From assembly GCA_017934595.1 (NCBI GenBank), contig JAGBJG010000008.1, positions 723 to 64,722 on the forward strand: DNA of 64,000 nt, written 5' to 3'. The DNA comes from Bacilli bacterium (GTDB lineage: Bacteria > Bacillota_I > Bacilli_A > RF39 > UBA660). The position numbers and the translations under genes were made by a program. The notes below the pieces were generated by a model. The model worked only from the letters and a program-made list of their open reading frames with translations, was not told where the DNA came from and ran no database searches. How positions within the stretch are numbered: the stretch's first letter is position 1; every line of letters starts with the position of its first letter. Shown in pieces: positions 10,396 through 44,861 of this stretch.

Positions 10396-11133
10396 ATGAA
10401 TAATAAAGGGTTTGCTATATCAAGTATTATGTATGGGATATTGATTATCTTTTTGATACTTGTTTTTTCAACATTATCTATTTTGGTTACAAGAGGTAAT
10501 TCTTTATCTAAGATTAAGAATAATGCTTTAAATACCATAATAGGTGGTAGTGATGATACTGCAGTAATGTCTAATATTGTAGCTGATTTTTCTTCGATGA
10601 ATATTACTTCTGATGCAGCTGATCATGTGACAATTAATTATAATATTAATGTATATTCTCCATATGGATATGTTATTGAAAGTAGTGTAAGTGGTAATAC
10701 AATTACATATACTGCTTCATCTTCTGGTGAAGTTATTGATACAGTAACTAAAACATTGGTGACAGATGCATCTCCATTAGTACATGATTATGAATATAAA
10801 AAAGGATATGAAAAAGTATTATTAAATCCAGGACTATATAAATTGGATGTTTGGGGAGCTAAAACAACAGCTAATGGTAATCATGCATCTGGATATTTAT
10901 ATTTAGAAGAAAAGAAAATTGTTTATATCTATGTAGGTGGTAAAGGAAGAACAGGCTATAATGCTGGCCATAGTCATATTTCATATAATGAAGGCTTATT
11001 ATCTACTTTAGGAGAAAATATTATTATATCTGATGGTTATATAGGTGGTGTAACTGAGGGTAATATAGAAAATGAAGTTAGGACTGGTAATGGAAAAGTT
11101 ACAATAACTAGTTTAATTTACTTTACAAAATAA
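10396..11133 (+). CDS. Pilin-leader (pseudopilin-like, lacks Glu+5) protein with a short version of the YK(I/L)(E/D)(L/V)WGA...GNGxxxIT domain
   Basis: ATG 10396 lies behind an AGGTGAT RBS. MNNKGFAISSIMYGILIIFLILVF is a class III signal-like leader. The C-terminal motifs YKLDVWGA, IVYIYVGGKG and GNGKVTITSL match those of the 41332 protein. Confidence 0.7.
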   Translation: MNNKGFAISSIMYGILIIFLILVFSTLSILVTRGNSLSKIKNNALNTIIGGSDDTAVMSNIVADFSSMNITSDAADHVTINYNINVYSPYGYVIESSVSGNTITYTASSSGEVIDTVTKTLVTDASPLVHDYEYKKGYEKVLLNPGLYKLDVWGAKTTANGNHASGYLYLEEKKIVYIYVGGKGRTGYNAGHSHISYNEGLLSTLGENIIISDGYIGGVTEGNIENEVRTGNGKVTITSLIYFTK

Positions 11134-13985: not shown

Positions 13986-15140
13986 ATGAAGGTATGTATT
14001 ATACTTCCTAAGGGACTACCTGTGCCAGCTACAAAGGGTGGCGCAATAGAGACATTGATGAATGATATCGCGTTATGTAATGAAAAATATAACAAGTTAG
14101 ATATCACTATTGTATCAACTTATGAAGCAAAGGCTTTAGAAGAATCTAAGAAGTTTAAAAATACTAAATTTATTTATATTAACACTTCTAAATTATCATT
14201 TAAAATAAAAGCTTTAAAAGTTAGAATAGCTAATTTATTTGGTAAACATTTGAATACATATAATGAATGTGTTTTAGATGAAATAAAAAAAGATAAATAT
14301 GATTATGTCTTAGTAGAAGATGGCGCTTATCATTCTTTTGTTAGCTATTTAAAATATTTTAAAAAAGATCAAATGATATTACATTTCCATCATAATGGAA
14401 TGTCTGATGAATATGCAGATGCGACATTTGGTAGATTTATAGGTGTAAGTAAATTTGTTACAAATACATTTAAAAATTCATCATCTATAAAAAAATGTGA
14501 AGTTTTGAAAAATGGTATCAATATAGATAAATTTAAAAAGAATGTTACAGCTAAAGAAAAAGAAGAAATAAAAAGTGAATTAGGTTTTTCAAAAGATGAT
14601 TTTATTGTTATGTATTGTGGAAGACTAGCTCCTGAAAAGGGTGTTTTAGAACTTGTACGTGCTATTAACATGATAGATGATGATAAAGTTAAATTAATGC
14701 TAGTGGGATCAATTAATTTTGGTATGCAAGCTAAAAGTGAATATTTTGATATGTTAACAGAAGAAATTAATAAGACAGATAGAATTAAAGCAACAGGTTT
14801 TATTCCTAATAATGAAATATATAAATATTATAAAACTGCTGATATTGATGTAATACCATCAATATGTGAAGATGCTGCTCCTTTAGTTACAGTTGAAGTA
14901 ATGGCATCAGGAACACCATTGATAATAACTAAATCAGGTGGAGCTCCTGAATATGCATCTATTGATACAATTATTGTACCAAAAGATGATATGATATCAT
15001 CTCATTTAAAAGATGCCATTTTAAAACTATATAAAGATTCTAAATTAAGAGATAAGATGAGTAAGAGTGGCTTAGAAAAAGCAAAAGAATTTACCACTGA
15101 AAATTTCTATTTTGATTTTGTTAAATTATTTATAAAGTAG
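13986..15140 (+). CDS. GT4-family (GT-B) glycosyltransferase
   Basis: C-terminal EDAAPLVTVEVMASGTPLI (E-x7-E type motif); 384 aa. Confidence 0.8.
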   Translation: MKVCIILPKGLPVPATKGGAIETLMNDIALCNEKYNKLDITIVSTYEAKALEESKKFKNTKFIYINTSKLSFKIKALKVRIANLFGKHLNTYNECVLDEIKKDKYDYVLVEDGAYHSFVSYLKYFKKDQMILHFHHNGMSDEYADATFGRFIGVSKFVTNTFKNSSSIKKCEVLKNGINIDKFKKNVTAKEKEEIKSELGFSKDDFIVMYCGRLAPEKGVLELVRAINMIDDDKVKLMLVGSINFGMQAKSEYFDMLTEEINKTDRIKATGFIPNNEIYKYYKTADIDVIPSICEDAAPLVTVEVMASGTPLIITKSGGAPEYASIDTIIVPKDDMISSHLKDAILKLYKDSKLRDKMSKSGLEKAKEFTTENFYFDFVKLFIK

Positions 15141-15147
15141 GTGTATT

Positions 15148-16644: not shown

Positions 16645-16648
16645 TTAG

Positions 16649-17623
16649 ATGAAAGTTAGTATAATAGTTCCAGTATATAACATGGAAAAAAGATTAAATA
16701 AATGTTTAGATTCATTGACTAATCAAACATATAAAGATATCGAAATTATTATCGTTAATGATGGTAGTATGGATCGTAGCTTAGATATTATAAGAGATTA
16801 TCAAGCTAAAGACTCTAGAATAAATGTCATTAATCAAAGAAATATGGGTATCAGTGAAGCTAGAAATAATGGACTAGCTATAGCTACTGGCGACTATATT
16901 TGTTTCACGGATAGTGATGACTATATAGAACTTGATATGATAGAGGAATTAGTAAATAAGATAACTATGGATAAATCAGATATTGTAGTATGTGATTATT
17001 ATATGTTTGATGATCAAACTAGAAAAGTTATTGAAGTGGGTTACGATGAATTATTCGGTGGTAGTATTTATGATAATCCTAATATTATTAAAGATATTGA
17101 CTTCGCCCCATGGAATAAGATATATAAAAAAGAATTATTTGATTCTATCAAATTCCCTGTAAATACTAAGTATGAAGATTTTGAAGCTATTTTAAAAGTA
17201 TTTAGTAAAGCTTCTAAAATAACAAAATTAAATAAACCATTATATGATTATTATTTTAATATGTCTGGTGAAACAAGAAATCAAACAGTTAAAAATATGG
17301 ATATGTTAAAAATAGCCATTAATTTAGAAGAATATTTTGATTTTAATGGTAAGAGTGTAGTTTTAAGAGATGCTTATGTTTCAACAGTATCTGAAAAATT
17401 ATTACATTCTGCATCAACATTATTTAAAATAACTACTTTAAAAGTATGTTTAAAATATATAAATGATGTATATAAATATTTAAATAAATATCCTCATTGG
17501 AAAAAATTATATAGAAAAAATAAATTAGATAGTAATTATATAAAGTTTATAAGAGGACATAAATTTATGTTAAAGTTATATGCAATTTTAAGAATTACTT
17601 TATATAAGATAATAGGTAGGTGA
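16649..17623 (+). CDS. GT2-family glycosyltransferase
   Basis: MKVSIIVPVYNMEKRLNKCLDSLTNQTYKDIEIIIVNDGS...DSDD. Confidence 0.85.
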   Translation: MKVSIIVPVYNMEKRLNKCLDSLTNQTYKDIEIIIVNDGSMDRSLDIIRDYQAKDSRINVINQRNMGISEARNNGLAIATGDYICFTDSDDYIELDMIEELVNKITMDKSDIVVCDYYMFDDQTRKVIEVGYDELFGGSIYDNPNIIKDIDFAPWNKIYKKELFDSIKFPVNTKYEDFEAILKVFSKASKITKLNKPLYDYYFNMSGETRNQTVKNMDMLKIAINLEEYFDFNGKSVVLRDAYVSTVSEKLLHSASTLFKITTLKVCLKYINDVYKYLNKYPHWKKLYRKNKLDSNYIKFIRGHKFMLKLYAILRITLYKIIGR

Positions 17624-17627
17624 TAAT

Positions 17628-18524
17628 ATGGATAAAATAACTATTGTAACAGCGTTTTTTGATATAGGAAGAAAAGATTTTAAGGAAATACCTAGAAGTA
17701 ATGATAAGTATTTAGAATACTTTAAATTTTGGGCAAGAATTAAAAATGATTTAGTTATCTATACTGATAGTGTGATGGGACCAAAAGCCATGAAAGTAAG
17801 AGAAGAATTTGGTCTTAAAGATAAAACTAAACTAGTTATTATTGATGATATATCTACTATTGATAAAGAATTATTAGAAAGAATGCAAACAATTGATGGT
17901 AGTAAATCATTTTTAAATTTTAGATATAATCCAAACGCTACAGAAAATAATGGTCTTTATAATTATGTTATGTTGCTTAAAGCATGGTGTATAAAAGATG
18001 CTTCAGATAATGGTGTAAAGGGCCAAATAGCATGGTTAGATTTTGGTTATAATCATGGTGGGAAAAGATTTACTGATCCACTAGATTTTGATTTCGAGTG
18101 GAAATATGACTTTGGAAATAAGGTAACCTTATTTGCGTTAAAAGAAGATGATGGAGAACCTATATTTAAGAAAGTTCAATCTTTAGATCCTATTATTATG
18201 GGGGCGCCTTTTATAGTTCCAAGTAAATATGCTAATACTTTATGGGAATTAGAAAAAGAGTGTATGAATGAATTAATTGATGTAGGCTTTACTGATGATG
18301 ATCAGTTAATTATGCTTATGGCTTATAGAAAAAAGAAAGATATGTTTGATGTAAAAATCAGTGATTGGTTTATGCCAATTAGAGATTTTGGTGGAACTCA
18401 TTTAAAATATAAAGAATTATTCCAAGCTAAGAAAAATTTATTATATAGATATCGTGTAATAAAAAGAAATAATAGATATTTAAAAAGATTTAAAAAAGAG
18501 TTTTTAAAAGATTATTTAGATTAG
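17628..18524 (+). CDS. HtrL/YibB (WlaTC)-like putative glycosyltransferase
   Basis: The N-terminus ITIVTAFFDIGRKDFKEIPRSNDKYLEYFKFWARIKN resembles the HtrL_YibB family signature as I recall it. Confidence 0.5.
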   Translation: MDKITIVTAFFDIGRKDFKEIPRSNDKYLEYFKFWARIKNDLVIYTDSVMGPKAMKVREEFGLKDKTKLVIIDDISTIDKELLERMQTIDGSKSFLNFRYNPNATENNGLYNYVMLLKAWCIKDASDNGVKGQIAWLDFGYNHGGKRFTDPLDFDFEWKYDFGNKVTLFALKEDDGEPIFKKVQSLDPIIMGAPFIVPSKYANTLWELEKECMNELIDVGFTDDDQLIMLMAYRKKKDMFDVKISDWFMPIRDFGGTHLKYKELFQAKKNLLYRYRVIKRNNRYLKRFKKEFLKDYLD

Positions 18525-18533
18525 AGGTGTCAT

Positions 18534-19466
18534 ATGAAATTTAGTATAGTCATACCTGTTTATAATGTGGAAAAGTATATAGCTAAATGTTTAGATAGTA
18601 TTAAGAGTCAAACTTATGCTAATTATGAAGTTATCATTGTTAATGATGGTACTAAAGATAATTCTGTTGATGTGATAAATAAATATTTATCTGATCCAAG
18701 ATTTGCATTATATAACAAAAAAAATGGTGGATTATCTGACGCTAGAAATTATGGTATTAAATATGTAACTGGTGACTACATTATCTTTATTGACAGTGAT
18801 GACTATATTGAACCTGATTTGCTTAATAATTTAAATAATATTTTAAAGGAAAATGAATATGATATTATTAAGTATAAAATTAATATGGTAGATGATAAAG
18901 GTGCTTTAATTAGAAAAGAGGTATCTGATTTAGTAGAAGGTAAAATCGATTTAAAAGAAATTTTATCATTCGAATATTCAGAACCTGCATGGGCTTATGC
19001 ATATAATAAAGATTTCTTTATTAAAAATAAATTTATGTATCCCAAAGGACGTATACATGAAGATTTTGGATTAACTCCATATATATTAGTAAAAGCAAAT
19101 AGTATATATTATATGGATTACTATGGATATAATTATGTCCAAAGGGAAAATAGTATCGTTAATGGGTCTGAAAAAGCACGAAGAAGATGTGAAGATATGT
19201 TATATCATTTCGATAGCTTATATATATTGATATCAAATGATAATACTATATCAGAAGAAAATAAAAAATTAATATATAGTTATTTAGCTAATGGTGTAAT
19301 ATTAAAAGGTAATATCTTGGATAAGACTAATTTAAAATGGTATATTAAAGAAATCAAAAGTAGAGATATTACTAAATATTTAGCTTCTGATACATTAATA
19401 AGAAAGATGAAGAAACTATTTATAAAATTAAATATTTCTGCATACATTAAATCAACAACTAGATAG
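18534..19466 (+). CDS. GT2-family glycosyltransferase
   Basis: MKFSIVIPVYNVEKYIAKCLDSIKSQTYANYEVIIVNDGT...DSDD. Confidence 0.85.
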   Translation: MKFSIVIPVYNVEKYIAKCLDSIKSQTYANYEVIIVNDGTKDNSVDVINKYLSDPRFALYNKKNGGLSDARNYGIKYVTGDYIIFIDSDDYIEPDLLNNLNNILKENEYDIIKYKINMVDDKGALIRKEVSDLVEGKIDLKEILSFEYSEPAWAYAYNKDFFIKNKFMYPKGRIHEDFGLTPYILVKANSIYYMDYYGYNYVQRENSIVNGSEKARRRCEDMLYHFDSLYILISNDNTISEENKKLIYSYLANGVILKGNILDKTNLKWYIKEIKSRDITKYLASDTLIRKMKKLFIKLNISAYIKSTTR

Positions 19467-19476
19467 GAGAGATATT

Positions 19477-20799
19477 ATGAATATATCAAAAAGAAGTTTG
19501 AACATAATAGTGATATCTATTTATGTAATAACATTATTATGTGGTGCAGGGGCATTAATTTCAAATGATACAATTGAATTTGTAAGAAAAATATTAATGT
19601 TTACTTTACCTACACTAATGAATGCTTCTATGTTAATAGATCAAAAAGGAAATTTTAGTAAAATAAAAGATTATAAAGGTTATTTAATATTAATTATATT
19701 AAATCTTACATGGTATATTGTAACTATTATATTTGGTATTAATATTGGTGGTCAATCATTAACAGGATTTATTAATTTTACTAATATAATTTTATTAGTA
19801 TTCTTTATAACTCATGTTAATATTGATGAAGAAAATAAGAAAAAAATTATTAATGCATTTATATATTCAGCATTAATATGTTCTGTATATGGTATCTTAC
19901 AATATATATTTAAGTTTGATTTGAATACATTTTCGAATGATAAATATCCTGGTATAAATGGTAGAGTACCATCTACATTTTTCTTACCAACTTTATATGA
20001 TAAATATGCATGTATAATGTTCGCATTAGTATCATATTTAACATTAAAAGAAGATAAGTTATTATATAAAATATTATATGTAATAATAGGTATTAATATT
20101 GTGTTGACATTCTCAAGAGGTGGATTCATCGCGTTAATAATTGTTGTTTTAGTACATATTATTAGAACCATAATGTTAAAGAAATGGACTAATTTAATAT
20201 TACCATTATTATTAGTTATAATATCATTCTTAATACCTGGATTTGCATATTTATTCCAAAATACAGCTAATTATGTGTATGAAAAATTACATATTCCAAC
20301 TAATTTAAGGATGAGTCTTGTAGAGGAAGTGTCTGATGATTCAGTATCTACTGATCCAGAAGATGATATGTCTATAAGTTTTAGAAATTATTATAAAGGA
20401 ATTGGAAAACAAATTATTAAAGAATATCCAGTTTTAGGTATAGGATTAAATAACTATTCTTATATTTATAATAATCAAAATGTAACTTTATATATTGAAG
20501 ATACATCTGTTCTTGAAGAAAATCTTCCTTATATGTATCCACATAGTGGTTTTGTACAAATGGGTGCGGAGACAGGATATGTAGGATTAGTATTAATACT
20601 AGTATATCTGATATATGTATGTTATGATTATATTAGATATAGTGATAATAAATTTAAGTATTTTCCACTATTAATATTAGTATTATTCTTCTTAGGTAAC
20701 TATACAGAAAGCTTAATACAAAATAAACAATATATGTATATATTTATAATATTCTATGGTTTATTTAGTAATAGATATGAATTAAAGAAAAAGAAGTGA
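19477..20799 (+). CDS. wzy: Wzy_C-domain protein (O-antigen polymerase/ligase family), probable repeat-unit polymerase
   Basis: 440 aa, polytopic. Motifs TFSRGGFIAL, GIGLNNYSYIY and PHSGFVQMGAETGYVGL. Confidence 0.7.
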   Translation: MNISKRSLNIIVISIYVITLLCGAGALISNDTIEFVRKILMFTLPTLMNASMLIDQKGNFSKIKDYKGYLILIILNLTWYIVTIIFGINIGGQSLTGFINFTNIILLVFFITHVNIDEENKKKIINAFIYSALICSVYGILQYIFKFDLNTFSNDKYPGINGRVPSTFFLPTLYDKYACIMFALVSYLTLKEDKLLYKILYVIIGINIVLTFSRGGFIALIIVVLVHIIRTIMLKKWTNLILPLLLVIISFLIPGFAYLFQNTANYVYEKLHIPTNLRMSLVEEVSDDSVSTDPEDDMSISFRNYYKGIGKQIIKEYPVLGIGLNNYSYIYNNQNVTLYIEDTSVLEENLPYMYPHSGFVQMGAETGYVGLVLILVYLIYVCYDYIRYSDNKFKYFPLLILVLFFLGNYTESLIQNKQYMYIFIIFYGLFSNRYELKKKK

Positions 20800-20803
20800 T
20801 TAT

Positions 20804-21766
20804 ATGAAAGTTAGTATTATTGTACCAGTATACAATGTAGAAAAATATATTGATAAATGTTTATCTAGTTTAGTTAATCAGACTTTAAAAGATATCGAAA
20901 TTATTGTCGTAGATGACGATAGTCCTGATAACTCAAAAACTATAATAGATAAATATGTAAAAAAATATCCTAAAAAGGTTAGATATTTCCATAAAGAAAA
21001 TGGTGGACAAGGATCTGCTAGGAATTTAGGATTATCTAAAGCTAAAGGTGACTACATTGCCTATGTTGATAGTGATGATTATATTGAACCTAATATGATG
21101 GAAAAGATGTATAACAAAGCTATTCAAGATAATAGTGATATCGTTATATGTGGTAATAGGGAAGTAGATGAATCAGGTAAAGAGTTAAATATCAACTTAT
21201 CCACAGTATATAATAATCCTATTATTGATAGTATTTATGGCAATATGGCTGTATGGAATAAAATATATAAAAAAGATATTTTAAAAGATATGCTTTTTAG
21301 AGAAAAACTATGGTATGAAGATATTGACTTTACAACTAAACTTATTTTATCTACTGATAAAATATCGTTTATAAATGAACCATTATATAACTATTTAGTT
21401 AGATCTGGTTCTACTATGAATAATAAAAACTATAAAAGAAATTTAGAGTTGTTACCAGCTTTTGATGAAATAATTAAATATTTTAAAGCTAAGAAAACAT
21501 ATAAGAAAAATTACGATGAATTAGAATTTATTGCTTTCTATCATATATATGTAATGGGTATTGGTAGAATAATAAGTATCGATGCTCCAATGAAAGATAA
21601 AAAAGAAATTATCAATGCTTATAAAAAATATATGAAAGATAATTTTAAGACATTTAGAAAAAATAAGTATATTAAATATATGAGTAGAAATAGAAAGATA
21701 GTGTATAGACTTATTGATTTAAATTTATATAATACTATTAAGTTTATATTAGAGGTGAAAGCATGA
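20804..21766 (+). CDS. GT2-family glycosyltransferase
   Basis: MKVSIIVPVYNVEKYIDKCLSSLVNQTLKDIEIIVVDDDS...DSDD. Confidence 0.85.
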   Translation: MKVSIIVPVYNVEKYIDKCLSSLVNQTLKDIEIIVVDDDSPDNSKTIIDKYVKKYPKKVRYFHKENGGQGSARNLGLSKAKGDYIAYVDSDDYIEPNMMEKMYNKAIQDNSDIVICGNREVDESGKELNINLSTVYNNPIIDSIYGNMAVWNKIYKKDILKDMLFREKLWYEDIDFTTKLILSTDKISFINEPLYNYLVRSGSTMNNKNYKRNLELLPAFDEIIKYFKAKKTYKKNYDELEFIAFYHIYVMGIGRIISIDAPMKDKKEIINAYKKYMKDNFKTFRKNKYIKYMSRNRKIVYRLIDLNLYNTIKFILEVKA

Positions 21767-22941
21767 AAAAACTTACTATTTTAGCTTTACATCTTGGATA
21801 TGGTGGAATAGAAAACGCGGTTAGTTCATTAGCTAATAACTTATGTAATACATATGATATTGAAATTGTATCAGTTTATAAATTATATGATAAACCAGCA
21901 TATAAATTAAACAATAAAATTAATATAACTTATCTAATTAATAGTGATATAGCTATTAGAGTAGATGAATATAAAAAAATACTTAAAAAAGGTAAAATAA
22001 TAAAATTATTTAAAGTTTTATTTAGAGATTATAAACTTAATATATTTAAATTAATAGGTGATACATTTATTAGTATCAAAACTCTTAATGATAAGAAAAA
22101 TCTTTTAATAGAGTATATTAAAAATATGAAAACTGATATAGTCATATCTACAAGAAGTGAACATAATATACTTGTAAGTAAATATGCCAAAGATTGTAAA
22201 AAGATAGCATGGGAACATAATCATGGGGATATAAATTATATTAATGATGTTATAGATAGTTGCTACAACATAGATAGTTTAGTATTAGTATCAAAAGAAT
22301 TATATAATTTATATAAAGAGAATAATAAAAATAATAAATTGAATTTATTTTATGTACCAAATGTAATAGATAGTGTACCAAGTAAAACATCAAAATTAGA
22401 TAATAAAAAATTAGTATCAGTTGGTAGATTAGTTGAAGTAAAAGGCTTTGATGATATGATTGATGTAATGAAATTAGTTCATCAAAAAGATAAAGATGTT
22501 ACTCTTGAAATAATAGGTGATGGGGATCTATATGGCCATTTAAATCAAAAAATAAAAGATAATAATTTAGATGAAGTAATAACATTAGCAGGTTTTAAAG
22601 ATAAAAAATATATCAACGATTCATTAGCTAACTCATCATTATTTATATTAACATCACATTCAGAATCTTTTGGTATAGTTGTTATTGAAGCTATGGCTGC
22701 AGGTGTACCAACAGTCGCATTCTCATCTGCTGAAGGATTAAGAGAATTAATAAATAAAGATAATGGTATATTAATAGATAATAGAAATATTAATGATATG
22801 GCTTCCAAAATTATTGAATTACTTAATGATAGAAAACAACTTAAGGCTATGGGTAAATGCTCATATAAAAATTCATTAAATTATACACCTAATAAGGTTT
22901 ATAAATTGTGGTTAGATGTTATGAATGGTAAAAATGAATAA
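21763..22941 (+). CDS. GT4-family glycosyltransferase
   Basis: SHSESFGIVVIEAMAAGVPTVAF motif; the start overlaps the upstream gene (ATGA). Confidence 0.8.
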   Translation: MKKLTILALHLGYGGIENAVSSLANNLCNTYDIEIVSVYKLYDKPAYKLNNKINITYLINSDIAIRVDEYKKILKKGKIIKLFKVLFRDYKLNIFKLIGDTFISIKTLNDKKNLLIEYIKNMKTDIVISTRSEHNILVSKYAKDCKKIAWEHNHGDINYINDVIDSCYNIDSLVLVSKELYNLYKENNKNNKLNLFYVPNVIDSVPSKTSKLDNKKLVSVGRLVEVKGFDDMIDVMKLVHQKDKDVTLEIIGDGDLYGHLNQKIKDNNLDEVITLAGFKDKKYINDSLANSSLFILTSHSESFGIVVIEAMAAGVPTVAFSSAEGLRELINKDNGILIDNRNINDMASKIIELLNDRKQLKAMGKCSYKNSLNYTPNKVYKLWLDVMNGKNE

Positions 22942-23042: not shown

Positions 23043-23072
23043 TATATTGTAGTAAGATAAGGTGGTGAGAAT

Positions 23073-23477
23073 ATGAATAAGAAAGGATTTACATTAATCG
23101 AATTATTAGCTGTAATCGTTATTTTAGCTATCATCGCATTAATCGTTACTCCAGTTGTTTCTAACATTATTTCTTCTGCTAAGAAAGCTGCAAATGCTCG
23201 TTCAGTAGAAGGTCATGTTAAAAATATCGAATATGCAATTATCCAAAAAGCATTCGAAGAAGGTACTGGTGACTTAGGTATATACAATGTAGCAGCTCCA
23301 GGTGGTGCTTTATCAGCTTCAGTTGATGCATTATTACCAGATGGTGATAAAATTACTTGTGAAAAATATACTATAGTAAATGGTACAGTTACAAAAGCTG
23401 AAACTTGTACTGCAGAAGGTTGGGGTACTGGTAACACATTTAATTATGCTGAAGGTTCAGGTGCTACTGCTCAATAG
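23073..23477 (+). CDS. Type IV pilin / pseudopilin (prepilin-type N-terminal cleavage/methylation domain)
   Basis: MNKKGFTLIELLAVIVILAIIALIVTPVV is a canonical G|FTLIE class III signal with Glu+5. It is 134 aa, and its GCT/GGT/ACT-rich codon usage suggests high expression. Confidence 0.9.
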   Translation: MNKKGFTLIELLAVIVILAIIALIVTPVVSNIISSAKKAANARSVEGHVKNIEYAIIQKAFEEGTGDLGIYNVAAPGGALSASVDALLPDGDKITCEKYTIVNGTVTKAETCTAEGWGTGNTFNYAEGSGATAQ

Positions 23478-23479
23478 CA

Positions 23480-23508
23480 AAAAAATAAGTGCTTAGGCAC
23501 TTTTTTTG
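23480..23508 (+). terminator. Rho-independent terminator after the pilin gene
   Basis: A-run, then aagtgc-ttag-gcactt, then T7. Confidence 0.8.
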
Positions 23509-23544
23509 ATGTCTTTTTTTTGCTATAATTATACTGGTGGTATT

Positions 23545-24951
23545 ATGAAAAAGATAGAGGATACTATTGGTGACATTTTAAAATTAAATATGAGTAAGGA
23601 ATCCGTAGACAAATTTAATATATATTTAATTATTTTTGGCTTAATTACTATGATGATTCCTAAAGCTTTATATAATTTTAAAATTGTAGAAATTCCAGAT
23701 TTGTATAATTATTTTTTGTTTTTATTAATACCAATGGTATATATTTTTATATACAACATCAAAAAAAAATATCACAAAAATTCTATTGATTTTATATTCT
23801 TAACAATATTCATGGTAATTGTTTTTGTATCTAGTTTACATGCGTTTAATCCATGGATAGCATTCTTCGGTGATGCAAGTAGAAAAACTGGATTTTTAAC
23901 ATATATTATCTATTATTTTATTTATATTAATTCAAAAAATATAAATAATAAAGAAGATGTATTTAAAATACTTAATATAATGTTTATTATAGGAATTATA
24001 AATACTATATTTGCATTATTACAATCATATTTACCATATAATAATATCTTTAATAAGCTATATGTAAATATGGCATATGGACTTATTGGTAATCCTAACT
24101 TTTTGGCAACTTTTGCCTTATTGCTGCTATCATTAAGTTTGTATATATCATTATTTATAAATAATAATAAATTTTACAAAATTGTATCTTATATAATGTT
24201 TGTATGTTTAGTATTATCTTCATCTACTGGACCTTTTCTAACATTTATATTATTACTATGTAGTTTATTTATATATATACTTATTAAAAAAAGAGATAAA
24301 CTAAAGAAATTAATAATATATACAGTAGTATTTATATTATTATTTATTGGTATAGAGGGATCAAGTATATATATAAATCAAAAAATATATAAGTATGAGG
24401 TAAAGAAAACAGGATTAATCAGTAAAGATATTACAAATATAATTAATATAATTGGGAATAAATTTTCATATAAAGATACGGTTAGTGATAATGTGGAATT
24501 GGATTATGAATATGATAAAGTTGATGCTGTCAATGCAGTATCATCTGGTAGATTATCTTTATATAAAATAGTTGCTAGATATATTAGTCAAGGTAATTAT
24601 ATTTGGTTAGGAACAGGCCCTGATAATATGAATATATATCATATAGATTGGGTTGATTCAAATAATCGTACGACGATGACAAATTATGATAAAGCTCATA
24701 ATGTTTATTTAAATGTACTAGCTGAAACAGGTATATTTAGTTTAATAGTTTATATAGCTTGGATAGTAAGTTATCATTTAAAAACAAAAAAATGCAAAAA
24801 TGAGTTAATGTATCTTTTATTATTTGGATTAATAAGTTATAATATACAAGGATTATTTAATATTGATGTATTTATGGTTATGCCGTATTATTTTATAATA
24901 GCAGGTATGCTTATGGGAATAGGTGATAAACTTGAAACAAGAAAACATTAG
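23545..24951 (+). CDS. Second Wzy_C / O-antigen-ligase-family polytopic membrane protein (candidate O-oligosaccharyltransferase)
   Basis: Start moved to ATG 23545 (MKKIEDT). Motifs [35 protein letters not shown] and [20 protein letters not shown] are typical of the WaaL/PglL/TfpO-type family. Confidence 0.7.
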
Positions 24952-37280: not shown

Positions 37281-37355
37281 ATTTTATCTACTTTTTTTCA
37301 TTTATCTATTTATTTCGTATTATTAAAATGCTATAATTTAAGTAGGGTGGTTTTT

Positions 37356-39404
37356 ATGGATAAAAATAGTAGTATAATTTTAGATTATCTAACTGATAGA
37401 GGCAAACCTATAAGTGCTGAAGGTATTGCTAATTATTTAAAGTTGGATAATTTTTTAGTTGAAAAGATATTATCTGAATTAAAATTAGAAAATAAAGTAG
37501 AAAAAAAAGGTAATAAGTATCGTGCTACTAATTATGTAACAGGTTTTGTAAAAATATCTAATAACGGTAAAATGTATATTAATCATGATAATAAAAAAAT
37601 ATTGTGTAATAATATTAGTGGATCTGAAATTACAGAGGGAGATTCTGTTTTATTTAAAATAACAAAAAAAGAAAAGAATTTTTGGTATGGTGAAATAGTT
37701 GGAATTGTTGATAAACGTATTAGAAATAATGTTGGTACTGTTATAAGTAGAGAAGGCGAACTTGTTATAAAAGGTAAAGATAAAAAATCCAATATATACA
37801 TTTATCCTAATTCTAAAGTTGTATCTGGTGATATAGTTAAATATAAACTAGGTGATAGAATAAGAGATTCTTTTTACGAAGGTGAAGTATTAGATGTAGT
37901 TGGCCGTGTAGATGAACCTAAAAGTGATATGACATCTATATTAGTAACTAATAATTTCCATGTTAAATTTCCAGAGGAAGTAATGGAAGAAGTTAAGAAA
38001 ATCGATGAAACAATTAGTCTAGAAAATAGACGCGATTTAAGAAATAATTTGATATTTACAATCGATGGTGATGATACTAAAGATATAGATGATGCAATCG
38101 AACTTGATAAACGTGATGATGGTACATATAAATTAGGTGTACATATAGCTGATGTTTCAAATTATGTTAAAATAGGTTCTGCATTAGATAATGAGGCATT
38201 CTTCCGTGGGACATCAGTATATCCACCATCTTCAGTAATACCAATGTTACCACATGAATTATCTTCTGGTGTATGTTCATTATTTGAAAATACAGATAGA
38301 TATGCACTTTCATGTGTAATGGAATTTTCATCAAGTGGAGACTTTATGGACTGTGAATTTTTTCCATCAGTTATTAATTCGAAAAAGAAAATGGCTTATT
38401 CAAAAGTAAATAGATTATTGGATACAGATACTCCATTTGGTTATGAAAAATTTGCGTCTGAATTAAAATTAATGAATGAATTTAAAAGTGTATTAAGAAA
38501 AAAAAGATTTGAAAATCAATCAATTAATTTTGATATTCCTAAATTAGGTGTTAAATTAAATGACTTAGGTACTCCTATATCCATTTATCAAGAGATACGT
38601 GGTGAAGCAGAAAAGTTAATTGAAGAATTTATGTTAATCACTAATATATGTACTGGTATGGTGGAAGATCGATATGGTTATGGCGCTTTCCGTACGCATG
38701 ATGTACCTGATATAGATAAACTTTATAAAGCAACATCAATTTTAGAAAAATTAGGCATTAAAATTCCTAAATATAATGATATAACAAAACACAAATTTAT
38801 TATTGAATTATCAAATAATATTAAAAATGGTTCATATAAAGATTTAGGTGAAGAATTATTATTGAAATGTATGTCTAGAGCTCAATATTCAAGAGTTAAT
38901 ACTGGACATTATGGTCTTAATTTTAAAAGATATGCACAGTTTACTTCTCCAATAAGAAGATATCCTGACTTAACTAATCATAGAGTAATAAAAGATATAT
39001 ATGGAATTGCAAATCCAAATTTTCCAACAGATAGAAAAGCATATTTAAATAATGTTTGTTCACACGCATCTATGCAAGAAAGAAATGCGGATGCTGCAGA
39101 AGCTATAATTAAGAAAATGAAAATGGCAGAGTTTATACAAGATGAAGTTGGTAAGGATTATGAAGGTCAAGTAGTAGATGTATATGCTAATTCTATAGAA
39201 GTTAAATTATCTAATGGTATTACTGGTACTATAGATCTAGGAGAAGGTAAAGATTTCAATAATTTTTCAGTACGAGCAAATGGTAAGACATATAGATATG
39301 GTCAAATGTTAAATGTTGCTATTGAAGATGTTTCGATAAATCCTGCAGTAATATCATTAGTAGATACAGATGTAAAAAGATTATCAAAAAAATATAAACA
39401 CTAA
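37356..39404 (+). CDS. rnr: Ribonuclease R
   Basis: RNB motifs TIDGDDTKDIDDA and FTSPIRRYPDL, with a C-terminal S1 domain. ATG 37356 lies behind GGGTGG. Confidence 0.9.
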   Translation: MDKNSSIILDYLTDRGKPISAEGIANYLKLDNFLVEKILSELKLENKVEKKGNKYRATNYVTGFVKISNNGKMYINHDNKKILCNNISGSEITEGDSVLFKITKKEKNFWYGEIVGIVDKRIRNNVGTVISREGELVIKGKDKKSNIYIYPNSKVVSGDIVKYKLGDRIRDSFYEGEVLDVVGRVDEPKSDMTSILVTNNFHVKFPEEVMEEVKKIDETISLENRRDLRNNLIFTIDGDDTKDIDDAIELDKRDDGTYKLGVHIADVSNYVKIGSALDNEAFFRGTSVYPPSSVIPMLPHELSSGVCSLFENTDRYALSCVMEFSSSGDFMDCEFFPSVINSKKKMAYSKVNRLLDTDTPFGYEKFASELKLMNEFKSVLRKKRFENQSINFDIPKLGVKLNDLGTPISIYQEIRGEAEKLIEEFMLITNICTGMVEDRYGYGAFRTHDVPDIDKLYKATSILEKLGIKIPKYNDITKHKFIIELSNNIKNGSYKDLGEELLLKCMSRAQYSRVNTGHYGLNFKRYAQFTSPIRRYPDLTNHRVIKDIYGIANPNFPTDRKAYLNNVCSHASMQERNADAAEAIIKKMKMAEFIQDEVGKDYEGQVVDVYANSIEVKLSNGITGTIDLGEGKDFNNFSVRANGKTYRYGQMLNVAIEDVSINPAVISLVDTDVKRLSKKYKH

Positions 39405-39429
39405 AAGCCACACATTGTGTGACTTTTTA
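39403..39429. terminator. Bidirectional terminator between rnr and DUF1016 copy 1
   Basis: aaaag-cCACAC-att-GTGTGa-cttttt. Confidence 0.6.
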
Positions 39430-40311
39430 ATTTACAATATACTCTCTTGATAATATTCTTTTATCAGAAGTATATTCTATAATAAATTCATTATTTTTTC
39501 TACATAGTATAATTCCAATAGTTTTATTATGATTTATCTTTTTTAAATTAATATCAATATAATTCATATATACTTGGACTTGTCCTATATCTTGTTTTCT
39601 TAGTTCATTTAATTTTAGTTCTATAACTATATAACAATTATATTCAATATTAAATAGTAATAAATCAATATAATTATATCTATCGCCCAGTTTAATAGGA
39701 TATTCATTTTTTATAAAAGTAAATCCAGTACCTAATTGTTCTAAGAATGAAGGTATATCTTCCATAATTAACATTTGTAATGCTTTTTCTTTTACTATAT
39801 CGACATTATTAGGATTATTTATAATAATAGGATTAGGAATATTATCAGGTAGAGTAGTAGTTTCATTATTAGATAGTTTTAATTTAGTATCTTTAGGTAA
39901 TCTTTCATATTCATTTGACTTAATTCTTTCTCTTAATTTATCACGACTAAGATTCAATGATATAGTTTTTTCAATATAATAATTAATTTCGTTAATATTT
40001 TTTATAGAAATAAGTTCTATCCAATGGCTCCATGTCAATTGGTGCGCGAATTGCGCACCTTTTTGAATTGACATATAAAATTGTCTCGTTCGTTTTAGTG
40101 ATGTGACATCATATCCTTTACCTAATTCTATTGTTAACTTAATGGAATATTGCTTTATAATACCTTCACCATAATGTTTGCCTGCATCATATAGTAATTT
40201 ACCAACATTGTATCTAGTTTCCAAGTTATGTTTGTTCTTAGAATAATCTTTAACTTTACTGTATACCTCGTTATTTATTAATTCATTTTTGATTAGTTCG
40301 TAATAATTCAT
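39427..40311 (-). CDS. yhcG: DUF1016/YhcG-family PD-(D/E)xK nuclease, copy 1
   Basis: LTWSHWIEL (N-domain motif). The C-terminal nuclease core is YIDLLLFNIEYNCYIVIELK (D...E-x-K) followed by QVQVYMNY. The start overlaps the end of copy 2. Confidence 0.8.
   Translation of the reverse strand: MNYYELIKNELINNEVYSKVKDYSKNKHNLETRYNVGKLLYDAGKHYGEGIIKQYSIKLTIELGKGYDVTSLKRTRQFYMSIQKGAQFAHQLTWSHWIELISIKNINEINYYIEKTISLNLSRDKLRERIKSNEYERLPKDTKLKLSNNETTTLPDNIPNPIIINNPNNVDIVKEKALQMLIMEDIPSFLEQLGTGFTFIKNEYPIKLGDRYNYIDLLLFNIEYNCYIVIELKLNELRKQDIGQVQVYMNYIDINLKKINHNKTIGIILCRKNNEFIIEYTSDKRILSREYIVN
39691..39939. repeat. About 249-bp near-identical block shared by copies 1 and 2 (partner 40584..40832)
   Basis: By eye about 10 mismatches in 249 nt at a constant offset of 893 nt, while the flanking gene parts are far more diverged. 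This is a mosaic, gene-conversion-like pattern. Confidence 0.8.
40032..40074. repeat. Intragenic GC-rich hairpin, copy 1
   Basis: + strand: ATGTCAATT GGTGCGC gaatt GCGCACC tttttg AATTGACAT. Inner stem 7 bp, outer stem 9 bp. Confidence 0.85.
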
Positions 40312-41219
40312 AAATTACCTCCTGTTAATTCATATTCCCTTACTGATATTCTTTCGTCAGATGAATATTCAATGACATATCTATTTTCTTTTTTACATAT
40401 AATAAGACCTATAGTTTTATTTTGATTTGATTCTTTTACATTTTTATCTATATAGTTAATATACATTTGAACTTGTCCTATATCCTGCTTTTTTAATTCA
40501 GTTACTTTTAATTCTATAACAACAAAACAATTGTATTTATAATTAAATAATAGTAAATCAACATAATTATATCTATTACCTAATTTAATAGGATACTCAT
40601 TTTTTATAAAAGTAAATCCAGTACCTAATTGTTCTAAGAATGAAGGTATATCTTCCATAATTAACATTTGTAATGCTTTTTCTTTTACTATATCAACATT
40701 ATTAGGATTCTTAATAATAATTGGGTTAGGAATATTATCAGGTAGAGTAGTAGTTTCATTATTAGATAGTTTTAATTTAGTATCTTCTGGTAATCTTTCA
40801 TATTCATTTGACTTGATTCTTTCTCTTAATTTTCTAACTGACAAATTTTGCGTTTCAACTAATCTAATGTAATAATTTATAATATTGATATTGTTAAGTG
40901 GGATAAGTTCGACATAATGAGACCAAGTTAATTTTCGCGACAATGTCGCGACATTTGAAAATAATAAATAAAACTGTCTGATTCTTAATAATGTTTTGTA
41001 ATCATACTTTTTATTAACTTCTTTAACTAATTTAATAGCATATTCCTTTATTAAATTTTCACCATATTTAGCCCTAGTTTCTCCTCCTTGGGCCTCAATA
41101 AGTAATTTACCTACATTATATCTAGTCTCTAAGTCATGCTTATTTTTAGAATAATCTTTAACTTTACTGTATACTTCGTTATTTATTAATTCAGTTTTTA
41201 TTAGTTCATAATAATTCAT
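40308..41219 (-). CDS. yhcG: DUF1016/YhcG-family PD-(D/E)xK nuclease, copy 2
   Basis: LTWSHYVEL; YVDLLLFNYKYNCFVVIELK; QVQMYINY. Confidence 0.8.
   Translation of the reverse strand: MNYYELIKTELINNEVYSKVKDYSKNKHDLETRYNVGKLLIEAQGGETRAKYGENLIKEYAIKLVKEVNKKYDYKTLLRIRQFYLLFSNVATLSRKLTWSHYVELIPLNNINIINYYIRLVETQNLSVRKLRERIKSNEYERLPEDTKLKLSNNETTTLPDNIPNPIIIKNPNNVDIVKEKALQMLIMEDIPSFLEQLGTGFTFIKNEYPIKLGNRYNYVDLLLFNYKYNCFVVIELKVTELKKQDIGQVQMYINYIDKNVKESNQNKTIGLIICKKENRYVIEYSSDERISVREYELTGGNL
40584..40832. repeat. Partner of the 249-bp block
   Basis: See 39691..39939. Confidence 0.8.
40935..40951. repeat. Intragenic GC-rich hairpin, copy 2 (homologous position)
   Basis: TCGCGAC aat GTCGCGA. Confidence 0.85.
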
Positions 41220-41225
41220 AATATA

Positions 41226-41264
41226 CCTCCTATAAACTTAATATGCCAAAACTTTTTTATATCC
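41226..41264. repeat. Left arm of the perfect 39-bp inverted repeat
   Basis: cctcctataaacttaatatgccaaaacttttttatatcc is the exact reverse complement of 43923..43961. It covers the SD and 5' region of DUF1016 copy 2. Confidence 0.9.
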
Positions 41265-41331
41265 TTTTTTATATAGTAAAAAACTTGTTTAATTTTAATA
41301 TTTAGTTTATAATTAATAATAGGGTGAGAAT

Positions 41332-43884
41332 ATGAATAAGAAGGGTTTTACATTAACTGAATTAATCGCGATATTAGTAATAATTTCAATTGTAGCTTTA
41401 ATAGCAGTACCAGCTGTAGTTAATTCAATTAAAAATAATAATCATGATTCATATAACGGTGTAGTAAATGATATTATATTGGCTTCAGAAACATATGCAG
41501 CTAATATGGGTGCTTCTATAGTTCAAGTATCAGTAGAAACTTTAAAACAAGCAGGATATTTATCACCTGATTTAAAAAATCCAATTGATAATTCTGATTT
41601 CAATGGTTGTGTATATATAGTTAATGGTGACCCTATATATAAAGAAGAAACTTGTAGTACAATTATAAAAAATGTAGACGGTGTAAGATTATATAAAGAT
41701 AGCATATTAAATGGATTAGATCCTGTATTAGATAAAGGATTAATTCCTGTTACAATCGGTGATGATGGAACAGTAACAAAAGCATCAATCGCGACTGAAT
41801 GGTATAATTATGGTGAAAAAAGATGGGCAAATGCCGTAATACTTAAGGGTAGTGATAATTATATTGAAGGTCAAACTATCCCTGAAAATAATATAGATGC
41901 ATATTTTGTATGGATACCTAAATTTAAATATAAATTATTTGATATGGGTAATTATACAACTTATTCTGGTACATCTAAACCAGATACTAGTAATGCGAAA
42001 ACATTAGATATAGTATTTGATCCAGTGAATACTACTGATTCAGATACTAGTTGTATGACTCCTCTAACTAGTGGGGCAAGTGGTAACTGTGCAGTAGGCA
42101 AGTATATGACTCATCCATCATTTATTACATTAGGAGTAAATGGATATTGGGTTGGTAAATATGAAACAAGTGGTACAACATCTGATTTAGATGTTAAACC
42201 TAATGTCTCATCTTTAAGAAGTACTACTGTAGGTGATTTCTTTACTTCAATGTATAACTATAATAGAGATTTAGACTCTCATATGATGAAAAATACAGAA
42301 TGGGGAGCAGTTGCATATTTATCCTTATCAAATTATGGCATAAATGGTGAAGTAAGAATTAATAATAGTTCGACTTATACAACTGGATGTGCGGCCACTG
42401 TAGCTAATACTACTAATGTTGGAGTTAGTCAATCAGATCATTCTGAAGGATATTATAATGGGTGTGAAAACGCGTATAATACAGCTACAGGATATTTAGC
42501 TTCAACTACTGGTAATATAACGGGTGTTTATGATATGTCTGGTGGTGCAAGGGAGTATTTAGCAGGATATATTAGTGGTGCAGGTGGTGGATTTACACCA
42601 TCAAGTTACAATGGCAAATATTATGATGTTTATGATTCTAATAGTTCAGTTAATTCTTATAATTACAGAATTTTAGGTGATGCGACTGGTGAAATGGGAC
42701 CATTTTATAAATATTCAGACAGTGATAATAATCAAAGAATTCATAGCAACTGGTTTGCTGATGGTTCTGATTTTATTGAATCTTCTGATTCATGGTTTGC
42801 ACGAGGCAACAATCATTATTATGGCGTGGTAGCAGGGCAAGCAGAATTTCATAAAGGTGCTGGCACAGATAGTAGTACTTTTAGTTCTCGTCTAGTTTTA
42901 GCTCCTGGTAGTACGGCTCGTGAGACTGCTTTAGGAACAACATGGACTTTTGATTATACAGGAAATGCACAAACATTTACTGTACCTGAAGATGGTAATT
43001 ATAAAATTGAACTTTGGGGAGCCCAAGGTGGAGCTTTATTTGATGAAGCTAATTATGGCGGTTATACTAGTGGAATATTGCCATTGAGAAATGAAAAATT
43101 ATATATTTATGTTGGCGCACAAGGTAATCAAGTTAGAAATGTAACTTTCAATGGTGGTGGATATGGTGGTGTCACGAATGGTATTAATAATAGTGGATCT
43201 GGCGCAGCTGGTGGTGGAGCCACTGATATCCGATTAGAAAATGGTGAATGGAATAATTTTAGCAGTTTAAAATCTAGAATTATGGTTGCTGCCGGAGGTG
43301 GTGGTTCAGCCTCAACTGCTTTATATTCGACAGCAGGACAGCATTCCTCAGCTGGTGGTCTTATTGGTTATAGTGGTGGTTATTATTCCGGCCATAGCTA
43401 TGTAATGCAGGAAGGTCAGGGTGCTTCACAAATAACAGGAGGCGCAGCAGGCGTTAATCATTATTCGTCGACTGGAACTAATTATGCTGGTACATTTGGT
43501 ATTGGTGGTAATAGTAATAGTACATCGGATAATAATGGTGCAGGTGGCGGCGGTGGCGGTTACTATGGTGGCGGCGCTGGTGGTGGTACTGCTGGCGGTG
43601 GCGGTGGCCAAGGTGGCGGCGGCGGTTCATCATTTATATCTGGATATTTTGGATGTAATGCTATCGCTGAATCTTCAACAGCATCTAATATAACACATAC
43701 AAATCAATCTAATCATTATAGTGGCAAAGTATTTACAAATGGTATAATGATAGATGGTGCAGGATGTAATTGGTCTACTGGTAGTGCTACTAACTGTGGC
43801 ACCAATCAACCACAACCTGATGGTACTATGGCAGTTGGTCATTCTGGTAATGGTTATGCTAAAATAACATTGATGTCATATTAA
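41332..43884 (+). CDS. Large pilin-leader protein: prepilin-type N-terminus, FGE-sulfatase (SUMF1)-like domain, and a glycine-rich (polyglycine) C-terminal domain
   Basis: MNKKGFTLTELIAILVIISIVALIA (G|FTLTE). NTEWGAVAYL, GVYDMSGGAREYLAGY and WFARGN resemble FGE-sulfatase motifs. YKIELWGAQGG, LYIYVGAQG, GGGATDIRL, GAGGGGGGYYGGGAGGGTAGGGGGQGGGGGSSF and GNGYAKITL mark the Gly-rich domain. Confidence 0.85.
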   Translation: MNKKGFTLTELIAILVIISIVALIAVPAVVNSIKNNNHDSYNGVVNDIILASETYAANMGASIVQVSVETLKQAGYLSPDLKNPIDNSDFNGCVYIVNGDPIYKEETCSTIIKNVDGVRLYKDSILNGLDPVLDKGLIPVTIGDDGTVTKASIATEWYNYGEKRWANAVILKGSDNYIEGQTIPENNIDAYFVWIPKFKYKLFDMGNYTTYSGTSKPDTSNAKTLDIVFDPVNTTDSDTSCMTPLTSGASGNCAVGKYMTHPSFITLGVNGYWVGKYETSGTTSDLDVKPNVSSLRSTTVGDFFTSMYNYNRDLDSHMMKNTEWGAVAYLSLSNYGINGEVRINNSSTYTTGCAATVANTTNVGVSQSDHSEGYYNGCENAYNTATGYLASTTGNITGVYDMSGGAREYLAGYISGAGGGFTPSSYNGKYYDVYDSNSSVNSYNYRILGDATGEMGPFYKYSDSDNNQRIHSNWFADGSDFIESSDSWFARGNNHYYGVVAGQAEFHKGAGTDSSTFSSRLVLAPGSTARETALGTTWTFDYTGNAQTFTVPEDGNYKIELWGAQGGALFDEANYGGYTSGILPLRNEKLYIYVGAQGNQVRNVTFNGGGYGGVTNGINNSGSGAAGGGATDIRLENGEWNNFSSLKSRIMVAAGGGGSASTALYSTAGQHSSAGGLIGYSGGYYSGHSYVMQEGQGASQITGGAAGVNHYSSTGTNYAGTFGIGGNSNSTSDNNGAGGGGGGYYGGGAGGGTAGGGGGQGGGGGSSFISGYFGCNAIAESSTASNITHTNQSNHYSGKVFTNGIMIDGAGCNWSTGSATNCGTNQPQPDGTMAVGHSGNGYAKITLMSY

Positions 43885-43912: not shown

Positions 43913-43922
43913 GGAAAAAAGA

Positions 43923-43961
43923 GGATATAAAAAAGTTTTGGCATATTAAGTTTATAGGAGG
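43923..43961. repeat. Right arm of the perfect 39-bp inverted repeat
   Basis: ggatataaaaaagttttggcatattaagtttataggagg; covers the SD and 5' region of DUF1016 copy 3. Confidence 0.9.
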
Positions 43962-43967
43962 TGAATT

Positions 43968-44861
43968 ATGAATTATTATGATGAGATAAAAGAAAGATTA
44001 ATTAAAAGCGAAATATATGATAAAGCAAAAGACTATGCGAAAGATAGAAATAAAGTTAATGTATACTATGAAATAGGTAAGTTATTAAGCGAAGCAGGTA
44101 AGGAGTATGGCAAAAATATAATTAAACAATATTCAGAAAAATTAATGATTGAAGTGGGTAAAAAATATAATGAAAGAAATTTGAGATATATGAGGCAATT
44201 TTATGAAGTGTTTTCAGGCACAAAATGGAACGCATTGCGTTCCAAATTGAGTTGGAGCCACTATAGAATTGTTTTATCACTTAAAAATACTGATGAAATA
44301 ATATATTATTTAACAGAATGCGAAAATAGGAATTTAACGTACAGACAATTGGACGAATTAGTTAGATGTGGTTATTATAATAGGTTAAGTGATAATACTA
44401 AAAGTAAATTAGCAATAGAAGATAAATTGGGAATAAATGATTTAATACCCAATCCTATAATTATAAAAAATGATTTGTTAACTGAAAATATATCTGAATA
44501 TGCACTTAAACAGATGATATTAAATAATTTGGATGATTTTTTAAAACAACTAGGATATGGATATTCTTATGTTGGTAATGAATATAGAATTAAGATAGGT
44601 GATAGATATAATTATATTGATTTACTACTATATAATATAGAATTTAATTGTTATGTTGTAGTTGAGCTTAAGATAACTGAATTTAAAAAAGAACATATCG
44701 GACAAGTTTTAGTATATATGAATTATATAGATGAACATCTAAAGAAGATTAATCAAGATAAGACAATAGGTATAATCATATGTAAAGAAGATAATGAGTA
44801 TGTTATTAAGTATTGTTTTGATGATAGAATTATAGTAAGAAAATATGAATTGATAGGATGA
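43968..44861 (+). CDS. yhcG: DUF1016/YhcG-family PD-(D/E)xK nuclease, copy 3 (more diverged)
   Basis: LSWSHYRIVL; YIDLLLYNIEFNCYVVVELK; QVLVYMNY. Confidence 0.8.
   Translation: MNYYDEIKERLIKSEIYDKAKDYAKDRNKVNVYYEIGKLLSEAGKEYGKNIIKQYSEKLMIEVGKKYNERNLRYMRQFYEVFSGTKWNALRSKLSWSHYRIVLSLKNTDEIIYYLTECENRNLTYRQLDELVRCGYYNRLSDNTKSKLAIEDKLGINDLIPNPIIIKNDLLTENISEYALKQMILNNLDDFLKQLGYGYSYVGNEYRIKIGDRYNYIDLLLYNIEFNCYVVVELKITEFKKEHIGQVLVYMNYIDEHLKKINQDKTIGIIICKEDNEYVIKYCFDDRIIVRKYELIG
44227..44243. repeat. Intragenic GC-rich hairpin, copy 3 (homologous position)
   Basis: GGAACGC att GCGTTCC. Confidence 0.85.

Follow-up and report, generated by a model that had tools for sequence, protein, structure and literature searches.

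What is a protein that begins like a type IV pilin and then runs on to 850 residues, and where would it act? The question is posed by a gene at positions 41,332 to 43,884, on the forward strand, of a 64,000-nucleotide stretch of contig JAGBJG010000008.1 from a member of the Bacilli (the window). Uncultured Bacilli with small genomes are common in animal guts. The host genome assembly measures ~1.0 Mb, has a GC content of 26.8% and is estimated to be 86% complete, and its relatives are metagenome-assembled genomes of uncultured gut 'Bacilli/Tenericutes'. A first-pass annotation, made from the letters of the window without database searches, had read the gene product as a prepilin leader joined to an FGE-sulfatase-like domain and a polyglycine-rich domain. 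Our analysis indicates that it is probably an adhesin displayed on a pilus, a type IV pilin of three modules, two of them binding heads.

Three modules in one reading frame

The gene is a single intact open reading frame (ORF) of 850 codons without internal stops, and its translation contains every motif quoted in the first-pass annotation: MNKKGFTLTELIAILVIISIVALIA at residues 1–25, NTEWGAVAYL at 321–330, GVYDMSGGAREYLAGY at 398–413, WFARGN at 488–493, YKIELWGAQGG at 557–567, LYIYVGAQG at 590–598 and GNGYAKITL at 839–847. The protein consists of three modules, namely a pilin, a middle module with a predicted C-type-lectin/FGE fold and an ALK/LTK-type glycine-rich domain (GRD), and its mature form has a mass of ~88 kDa.

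At the N-terminus, MNKKG is followed by FTLTELIAILVIISIVALIAVP, which gives a basic leader of five residues with glycine at −1, phenylalanine at +1, glutamate at +5, and a hydrophobic helix of ~21 residues with a proline at position 22. Both signature models recognize it above threshold (N_methyl PF07963, 23.3 bits against a cut-off of 21.2; TIGR02532, 19.2 against 16.3), which identifies a class III signal and bears out the leader proposed in the first pass. A profile of the family matched the pilin PilE1 of S. sanguinis (8pfb) over positions 7–93 with an E-value of 2.4e-7, and it matched other solved type IV pilins as well. ComGC-like similarity covers residues 3–80 below the cut-off, and ComGC, GspG and related models match the N-terminus only, all of them below their cut-offs. 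In the first AlphaFold model, the pilin module comprises a helix at residues 8–59 and four strands within residues 64–104, with pLDDT values of 60–85 and thus moderate confidence.

The start of the gene resembles that of a 134-residue type IV pilin encoded at 23073, as had been noticed before, and the resemblance includes the initiation region. There are exactly two copies of the 20-mer GGTGAGAATATGAATAAGAA in the window, at 23064 (23064–23083) and at 41323, each before one of these two genes, against 0 matches expected by chance in 100 shuffles. The nucleotide likeness extends through the codons for the signal and the α1 helix, that is, the first ~80 nt. A scan for promoters and terminators was uninformative (19 sites, 17 expected).

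The middle module is nearly invisible to sequence signatures. Pfam hmmscan of the 850-residue protein yielded no match to it at E≤1, and the FGE-sulfatase model PF03781 reached 14.1 bits (cut-off 23.3) over residues 346–433 only, the sole such place in the whole genome. Weak PF03781 matches were present in 28 of 41 family members, with a best E-value of 9e-4. When the family profile was compared by hhalign with a small alignment of genuine (Mycoplasma-type) FGE, the probability was 12–28%, which is not significant alone; the alignment placed three FGE hallmark motifs in the same order (xTEWxxxA, G-x-Y-D-M-S-G-x-x-x-E-[YW] and RGG...FR-x-V). Family profile A1 matched TaqVP (PDB 5VF4, E-value 3.5e-5), the C-type-lectin-fold variable protein of a Thermus aquaticus diversity-generating retroelement (DGR; 10.1101/432187), and with a messier, untrimmed profile (A4) this match dropped to an E-value of 0.64. 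As the sequence link to TaqVP is thus fragile, it is the fold evidence that carries the claim.

A first AlphaFold run over residues 1–552, with 41 close homologs, reached a pLDDT of 60.6, and Foldseek searches with that model gave noise only. With a second alignment of 108 sequences, taken from a search for family representatives, the middle module was modelled with a pLDDT of 93.6 and a pTM of 0.92. Foldseek searches of this model against PDB returned TaqVP as the first match (5vf4, E-value 2e-7, probability 1.0), followed by Mtd (1yu3, 1e-4) and TvpA (2y3c, 9e-3). EgtB (0.05), PorKN, FGE (2q17, E-value 0.12, probability 0.2), ToxD, CarF and OvoA appeared lower in the list. Against viral models there were 20 matches at E≤1e-3, mostly to annotated tail (collar) fibre proteins. 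The TM-scores to DGR variable proteins were modest (0.37–0.46). The model points to a C-type-lectin/FGE fold whose nearest relatives are receptor-binding proteins, not enzymes.

The cysteines of the protein are residues 93, 108, 241, 253, 353, 378, 775, 812 and 822. Since there is none in residues 379–774, where Mycoplasma FGE proteins carry LCHDxFC, the catalytic cysteine pair of FGE is missing. The FGE-sulfatase-like domain of the first-pass annotation therefore stands at the level of the modelled fold and falls at that of the family: like FGE/SUMF1 (PF03781), the module belongs to this fold superfamily and has the three hallmark motifs in order, but it scores below the cut-off, lacks the catalytic cysteines and ranks FGE under binding proteins in the fold search. 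Judged by the model, it is a lectin-fold binding domain and not an FGE enzyme.

The module shares with the DGR proteins TaqVP (5VF4), Mtd of Bordetella phage BPP-1 (1YU0-4) and TvpA (2Y3C) both the fold and the variability at the C-terminal end, whereas it differs from them in an extra N-terminal β subdomain, in insertions and in the lack of a reverse transcriptase and a template repeat in the genome. Its most variable stretch, residues 491–520, would be the ligand-binding face and the positional equivalent of the DGR variable region, an equivalence that rests on the order of the motifs. We rejected the module as a DGR target: no reverse transcriptase (PF00078) was matched in the host genome (86% complete), and the 3' part of the module's coding region, of which a second copy would be the template repeat, was found there once only.

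In the representative search, the middle-module family comprised 3315 clusters at 50% identity with E≤1e-3, 522 of them with E≤1e-30, and in most members the module forms the end of the protein. A prepilin motif is present at the N-terminus of 29 of 107 representatives; some others begin with 'NKGFAISG' helices that lack Glu5, and the 'SYAxF'-type N-termini of many relatives look like SipW/TasA-type signals. The same search returned giant repeat proteins with seven to nine copies of the lectin-fold module (P0121, 3713 residues; P0122, 4516 residues).

The third module was recognized over almost the full length of PF12810, ALK_LTK_GRD (profile positions 6–242 of 243, E-value 2.9e-40, 139.2 bits against a cut-off of 24.5), so that its first-pass placement with the ALK/LTK glycine-rich region was correct. 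A profile of five GRDs from the same genome (A5) matched the ALK structures 7mzw, 7nwz, 7lrz and 7n00 and the C. elegans structure 7lir; the E-values to ALK ectodomains were 0.002–0.008 over positions 2–209, with the shared glycine-rich motifs aligned. This required the paralog profile, as a single-sequence phmmer search of the GRD against PDB had no match. In common with the ALK/LTK domain (7LIR, 7MZW, 7NWZ), it has the motifs vP..GtY.I..GA.GG, LYI.VG, AAGGGG, GGGGGGYxGG and SFIS; unlike in the animal proteins, it is fused to a pilin and lacks the kinase, MAM or LDLa context. Its composition (25.5% glycine) and motif pattern predict the type that combines a TNF-like β-sandwich with polyglycine. 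This architecture forms the receptor-binding tip of the fibres in Pam3 (gp24) and S16 (gp38), of which Pam3 gp24 resembles the ALK domain, and ALK-type GRDs bind ligands or receptors in animals and phages (PMC9608196).

Sequence homologs of the GRD are found in C. difficile phages, where they occupy the receptor-binding slot; gp21 of phiCDHM11 directly follows the tail fibre gp20 and precedes the holin. The host genome has 12 copies. Among relatives the distribution is patchy: 11 of 31 genomes carry GRDs, at most 21 copies per genome, and we found none in 14 control genomes. A genome of the same genus (G151, C17:42255-55352) has one open frame of 7154 residues with at least nine tandem GRD copies. 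Within the present gene, a run of GGN codons at 43537-43626 encodes GAGGGGGGYYGGGAGGGTAGGGGGQGGGGG and contains imperfect direct repeats of 9–21 nt; as ortholog lengths differ there, in-frame slippage is possible.

Assembly genes and pilin repertoire of the host genome

The window's contig (C16) has no match to T2SSE, T2SSF or Peptidase_A24, in agreement with the earlier statement that pilB, pilC and pilD are missing from the window. A search of the genome for prepilin peptidase and ATPase genes, as the first-pass annotation had suggested, found both on contig C12 at 47–51 kb, together with the platform protein: the peptidase with 58 bits to PF01478, on which its assignment as PilD rests, the ATPase with 419 bits to PF00437 and PilC with 111 bits to PF00482. 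The ATPase is of the PilB/GspE type, with 479–486 bits on PilB/GspE models (479 on TIGR02538) versus 258 bits on ComGA. There are two T2SSF loci in the host genome. A Tad/Flp-type locus at G000 C14:7084-12075 encodes an ATPase of the T2SSE family (PF00437, 202 bits) and has two genes of the T2SSF family; it also includes two small proteins that are TadE-like by their N-termini (MNNKGQALIEF...) and an ATPase gene that looks CpaE-type. On these sequence assignments, the 1-Mb genome appears to carry two type IV filament systems.

Across the genome we counted ~20 prepilin-type ORFs. N_methyl and a GRD occur together in at least eight proteins, one of which (444 residues) adjoins pilB, pilD and pilC. 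The 134-residue pilin at 23073 is a candidate for the major pilin of the filament. Its gene is followed directly, in the region 23073-24951, by that of a 481-residue multi-pass membrane protein with a Wzy_C/O-antigen-ligase domain (E-value 1.4e-16), and upstream (13986-22941) are ORFs that read like glycosyltransferases and a second Wzy_C protein at 19477-20799. This layout recalls pilin O-glycosylation loci (pilA-tfpO/pglL).

The window's second GRD gene encodes a pilin-like protein of 245 residues, whose N-terminus, MNNKGFAISSIMYGILIIFLIL, lacks Glu5. The same 'NKGFAISG' start heads the middle-module relatives P0139, P0140, P0145 and P0246, and proteins of this kind may be a distinct class of pilin-like carriers. 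Three further pilin-like proteins of G000 (C12:43443-44756, C15:52135-53358 and C17:124470-126641) have weak matches to TSP_1/TSP1_spondin (E-values 2e-5 to 5e-3, mostly below the cut-off), which may reflect chance or a cysteine-rich module; one of the three also matches prok_STING weakly (E-value 0.0017).

Table 1. Positions in the window of the 850-residue pilin gene, its modules and two related genes.
Feature	Position	Strand	Basis
Shine-Dalgarno/initiation region GGTGAGAAT	41323..41331	+	identical before the 134-aa pilin gene at 23073
Class III signal leader MNKKG, predicted PilD cleavage after Gly5	41332..41346	+	Pfam N_methyl aa 2-25, TIGR02532
Pilin module, mature aa F1 to ~107, hydrophobic alpha1N (E5, P22) and small alpha/beta head	41347..41667	+	profile and AF2
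Middle module, aa 113-530: N-terminal beta subdomain and C-type-lectin/FGE-fold domain (predicted)	41668..42921	+	AF2, Foldseek
Most variable stretch of the lectin module, aa 491-520, between conserved RG(G) and terminal R-x-V-L	42802..42891	+	ortholog identity
ALK/LTK-type GRD, aa 553-847, TNF-like and polyglycine (predicted)	42988..43872	+	PF12810, paralog profile
Stop codon	43882..43884	+	translation
134-aa type IV pilin with the same initiation region	23073..23477	+	N_methyl E 1.9e-8, TIGR02532
245-aa protein, Glu5-less pilin-like N-terminus (MNNKGFAISS) and partial GRD	10396..11133	+	PF12810 31.5 bits, aa 140-203

Conservation of the gene and its surroundings

The orthologs P0004 and P0002 have the same site and orientation, with RNase R on one side and a Met-rich ORF/trmB on the other. 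Relative to the P0004 locus, identity is 86–98% for the ordinary flanking genes and 58% for the 850-codon gene. Across three positional orthologs, this divergence is graded along the protein: identity is 85–96% in the pilin, 75–78% in the N-terminal part of the lectin module, 68–77% in its core, 37–42% at its C-terminal end (residues 471–530) and 30–31% in the GRD. Flanking housekeeping genes are 87–98% identical. A conserved handle with diversifying heads suggests adhesin-like evolution.

The GRD is nearer to its paralogs in the same genome (42–45% identity, 186–219 bits) than to the GRDs of the orthologs (125–130 bits), and it has an insertion in common with these paralogs that is absent from the orthologs. 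The two observations suggest an exchange of cassettes; the GRD seems to be the product of exchange with paralogs of the same genome, or of convergence on them.

RNase R (37347-39404) is itself only 47% identical to its counterpart at L098:3867-5888, versus 91% for ClpP, 98% for GAPDH and 95% for PGK on the same, otherwise near-identical syntenic contig. From RNase R through the pilin gene as far as the Met-rich ORF (68%), the sequences diverge as one block, and it looks as if the whole segment had been replaced.

Three paralogs of the DUF1016/YhcG family of PD-(D/E)xK nucleases bracket the gene (39427-41265, 43922-44861), the nearest two being divergent. A perfect inverted repeat of 41 bp (41225-41265 and 43922-43962) corresponds to the shared 5' region of these divergent paralogs and covers their ribosome-binding sites. 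The window has three DUF1016 genes, the ortholog loci have zero or one. As the orthologs keep site and orientation with differing numbers of DUF1016 genes, we regard these genes and the repeat as secondary.

A probable pilus-displayed adhesin and its rivals

The first-pass annotation had held that a pilus-anchored enzyme or adhesin of this size is not a described class of pilin. This claim fails, because such architectures are already listed in the catalogue of modular pilins by Raynaud et al. 2021, proteins in which an N-terminal IPR012902 motif is accompanied by one or more domains that are not particular to the biology of type IV pili (PMC8179133). Its 264 architectures (Dataset S1) include pilin-FGE and pilin-GRD fusions, namely IPR012902-IPR005532 (8 proteins), IPR012902-PF12810 (2) and IPR012902-PF12810x3 (1), as well as a PilY1 with PF12810 (PMC8179133). 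With N_methyl, a lectin-fold module and PF12810, our protein falls under this definition, and its 850 residues are near the extreme of 860 in the catalogue (PMC8179133). Its full architecture could not have been catalogued, because the lectin-fold head matches no signature at threshold. The closest functional models are PilB (pilin and vWA) and PilC (pilin and lectin) of S. sanguinis, adhesins that have been modelled as most probably located at the pilus tip (PMC8179133). Like these, our protein has a class III signal and a small pilin fused to non-pilin modules, and by analogy the same tip-adhesin role is proposed for it; unlike them, it has two different heads in tandem, and its host is an uncultured, reduced-genome gut member of the Bacilli.

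From this architecture we infer processing, incorporation into a pilus, a location at its tip and a function in binding. The genome's prepilin peptidase would cleave off the class III signal MNKKG, and the protein would be inserted, by way of its α1 helix and small pilin head, into a type IV filament that PilB and PilC from the other contig build. As the protein is bulky, the tip is its most likely position. The filament would there present two ligand-binding heads in tandem: first the C-type-lectin/FGE-fold module, akin to TaqVP and Mtd (DGR variable proteins) and to the tips of phage tail fibres, and then the ALK/LTK-type TNF-like/polyglycine domain, of the kind seen at the receptor-binding tips of phage fibres and at the site where ALK binds its ligand. 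The role of the protein would thus be that of an adhesin to a surface ligand of host, microbial or dietary origin.

Several findings weigh against a pilus-displayed adhesin. The gene stands outside any pilus operon, between RNase R and trmB, the pilin head could be modelled with moderate confidence only, and a cargo of 88 kDa is among the largest known for modular pilins. Further, 78 of the 107 middle-module representatives are without a prepilin motif (some of them being N-terminally truncated) and so have non-pilin anchors, which means that the pilin handle might be just one of several membrane anchors. The main rival, which we consider unlikely but far from negligible, is a pilin-like protein that does not polymerize and uses its signal and α1 helix only for export and for tethering in the cytoplasmic membrane, so that the heads would be exposed at the cell surface and not along a filament. 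It would account for an orphan gene far from the assembly genes, for relatives that mount the same middle module on other kinds of N-terminal anchors, and for the ~20 prepilin-type proteins in a 1-Mb genome, which look like a general display route. However, pilin genes away from their machinery are common, and a plain anchor would need neither E5 nor P22, residues that are tied to filament assembly and kept here in the most conserved module of the protein (85–96%).

The remaining readings are unlikely. That the protein serves a competence (Com-type) pilus or pseudopilus as a minor pilin and uses its bulky modules to capture DNA or another substrate rather than to adhere is distinctly improbable: the best NCBIfam matches of the N-terminus are indeed to ComGC, ComGE and ComGF models, and the ATPase does match ComGA, yet all Com matches of the protein are far below their cut-offs (32 bits versus 75), the ATPase scores higher on PilB/GspE, and neither head is like a DNA-binding fold, both matching receptor-binding proteins. 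We give very little credence to an exported enzyme whose middle domain would oxidize or modify a substrate as FGE, EgtB and OvoA do. Such an enzyme would fit the weak PF03781 matches, the correct order of the FGE-type motifs and the presence of EgtB, FGE, ToxD, CarF and OvoA further down the fold list, but the Cys-free stretch leaves no catalytic pair, a DinB-type iron domain is lacking in the protein, the top folds are the non-enzymatic TaqVP and Mtd (probability 1.0), far ahead of FGE, and the would-be active-site end is the most variable part of the domain. Equally improbable is a phage-derived or mobile cassette, be it a captured tail-fibre gene or a segment that inverts between the 41-bp repeats. 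Both heads have tail-fibre relatives, and the perfect repeat and the DUF1016 genes do flank the gene; against this, no phage genes are nearby, the N-terminus is of the pilin type and not of the fibre type, and the orthologs have the same chromosomal site and orientation whether 0, 1 or 3 DUF1016 genes are present, the repeat being simply the common 5' region of two of these. We therefore rejected the invertible segment or mobile cassette as the principal explanation.

Because the design of a pilin handle with grafted modules has already been published, the gain from the present protein is in breadth rather than in kind. Three things are new: a single pilin carries in tandem a GRD and a lectin-fold head that current signatures do not detect; the lectin-fold family is defined structurally, by way of the predicted model; and pilin-GRD paralogs are densely represented in a genome of 1 Mb. 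It is possible, and we propose it tentatively, that the prepilin/type IV filament route serves reduced-genome gut Bacilli as a general means of displaying a diversifying repertoire of heads of the phage receptor-binding type (lectin-fold and ALK-type GRD). The 850-residue protein would then be a bispecific pilus-tip adhesin whose two heads could be swapped independently on a conserved handle, cassettes would be exchanged between paralogs and possibly with phages, and the bacterial GRD would represent the ligand-binding ancestor of the animal ALK/LTK domain.

To our knowledge, the function of the ALK/LTK glycine-rich domain outside animals has not been studied, and the gene described here offers a tractable bacterial context for it. 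The lectin-fold module belongs to a very large domain family, one that Pfam misses at threshold, for which a confident structural model is now available. Together with at least seven other pilin-GRD fusions, the 850-residue protein points to type IV filaments as the main display platform of small-genome gut Bacilli, and to two receptor-binding folds of the phage type as their adhesive tool-kit.

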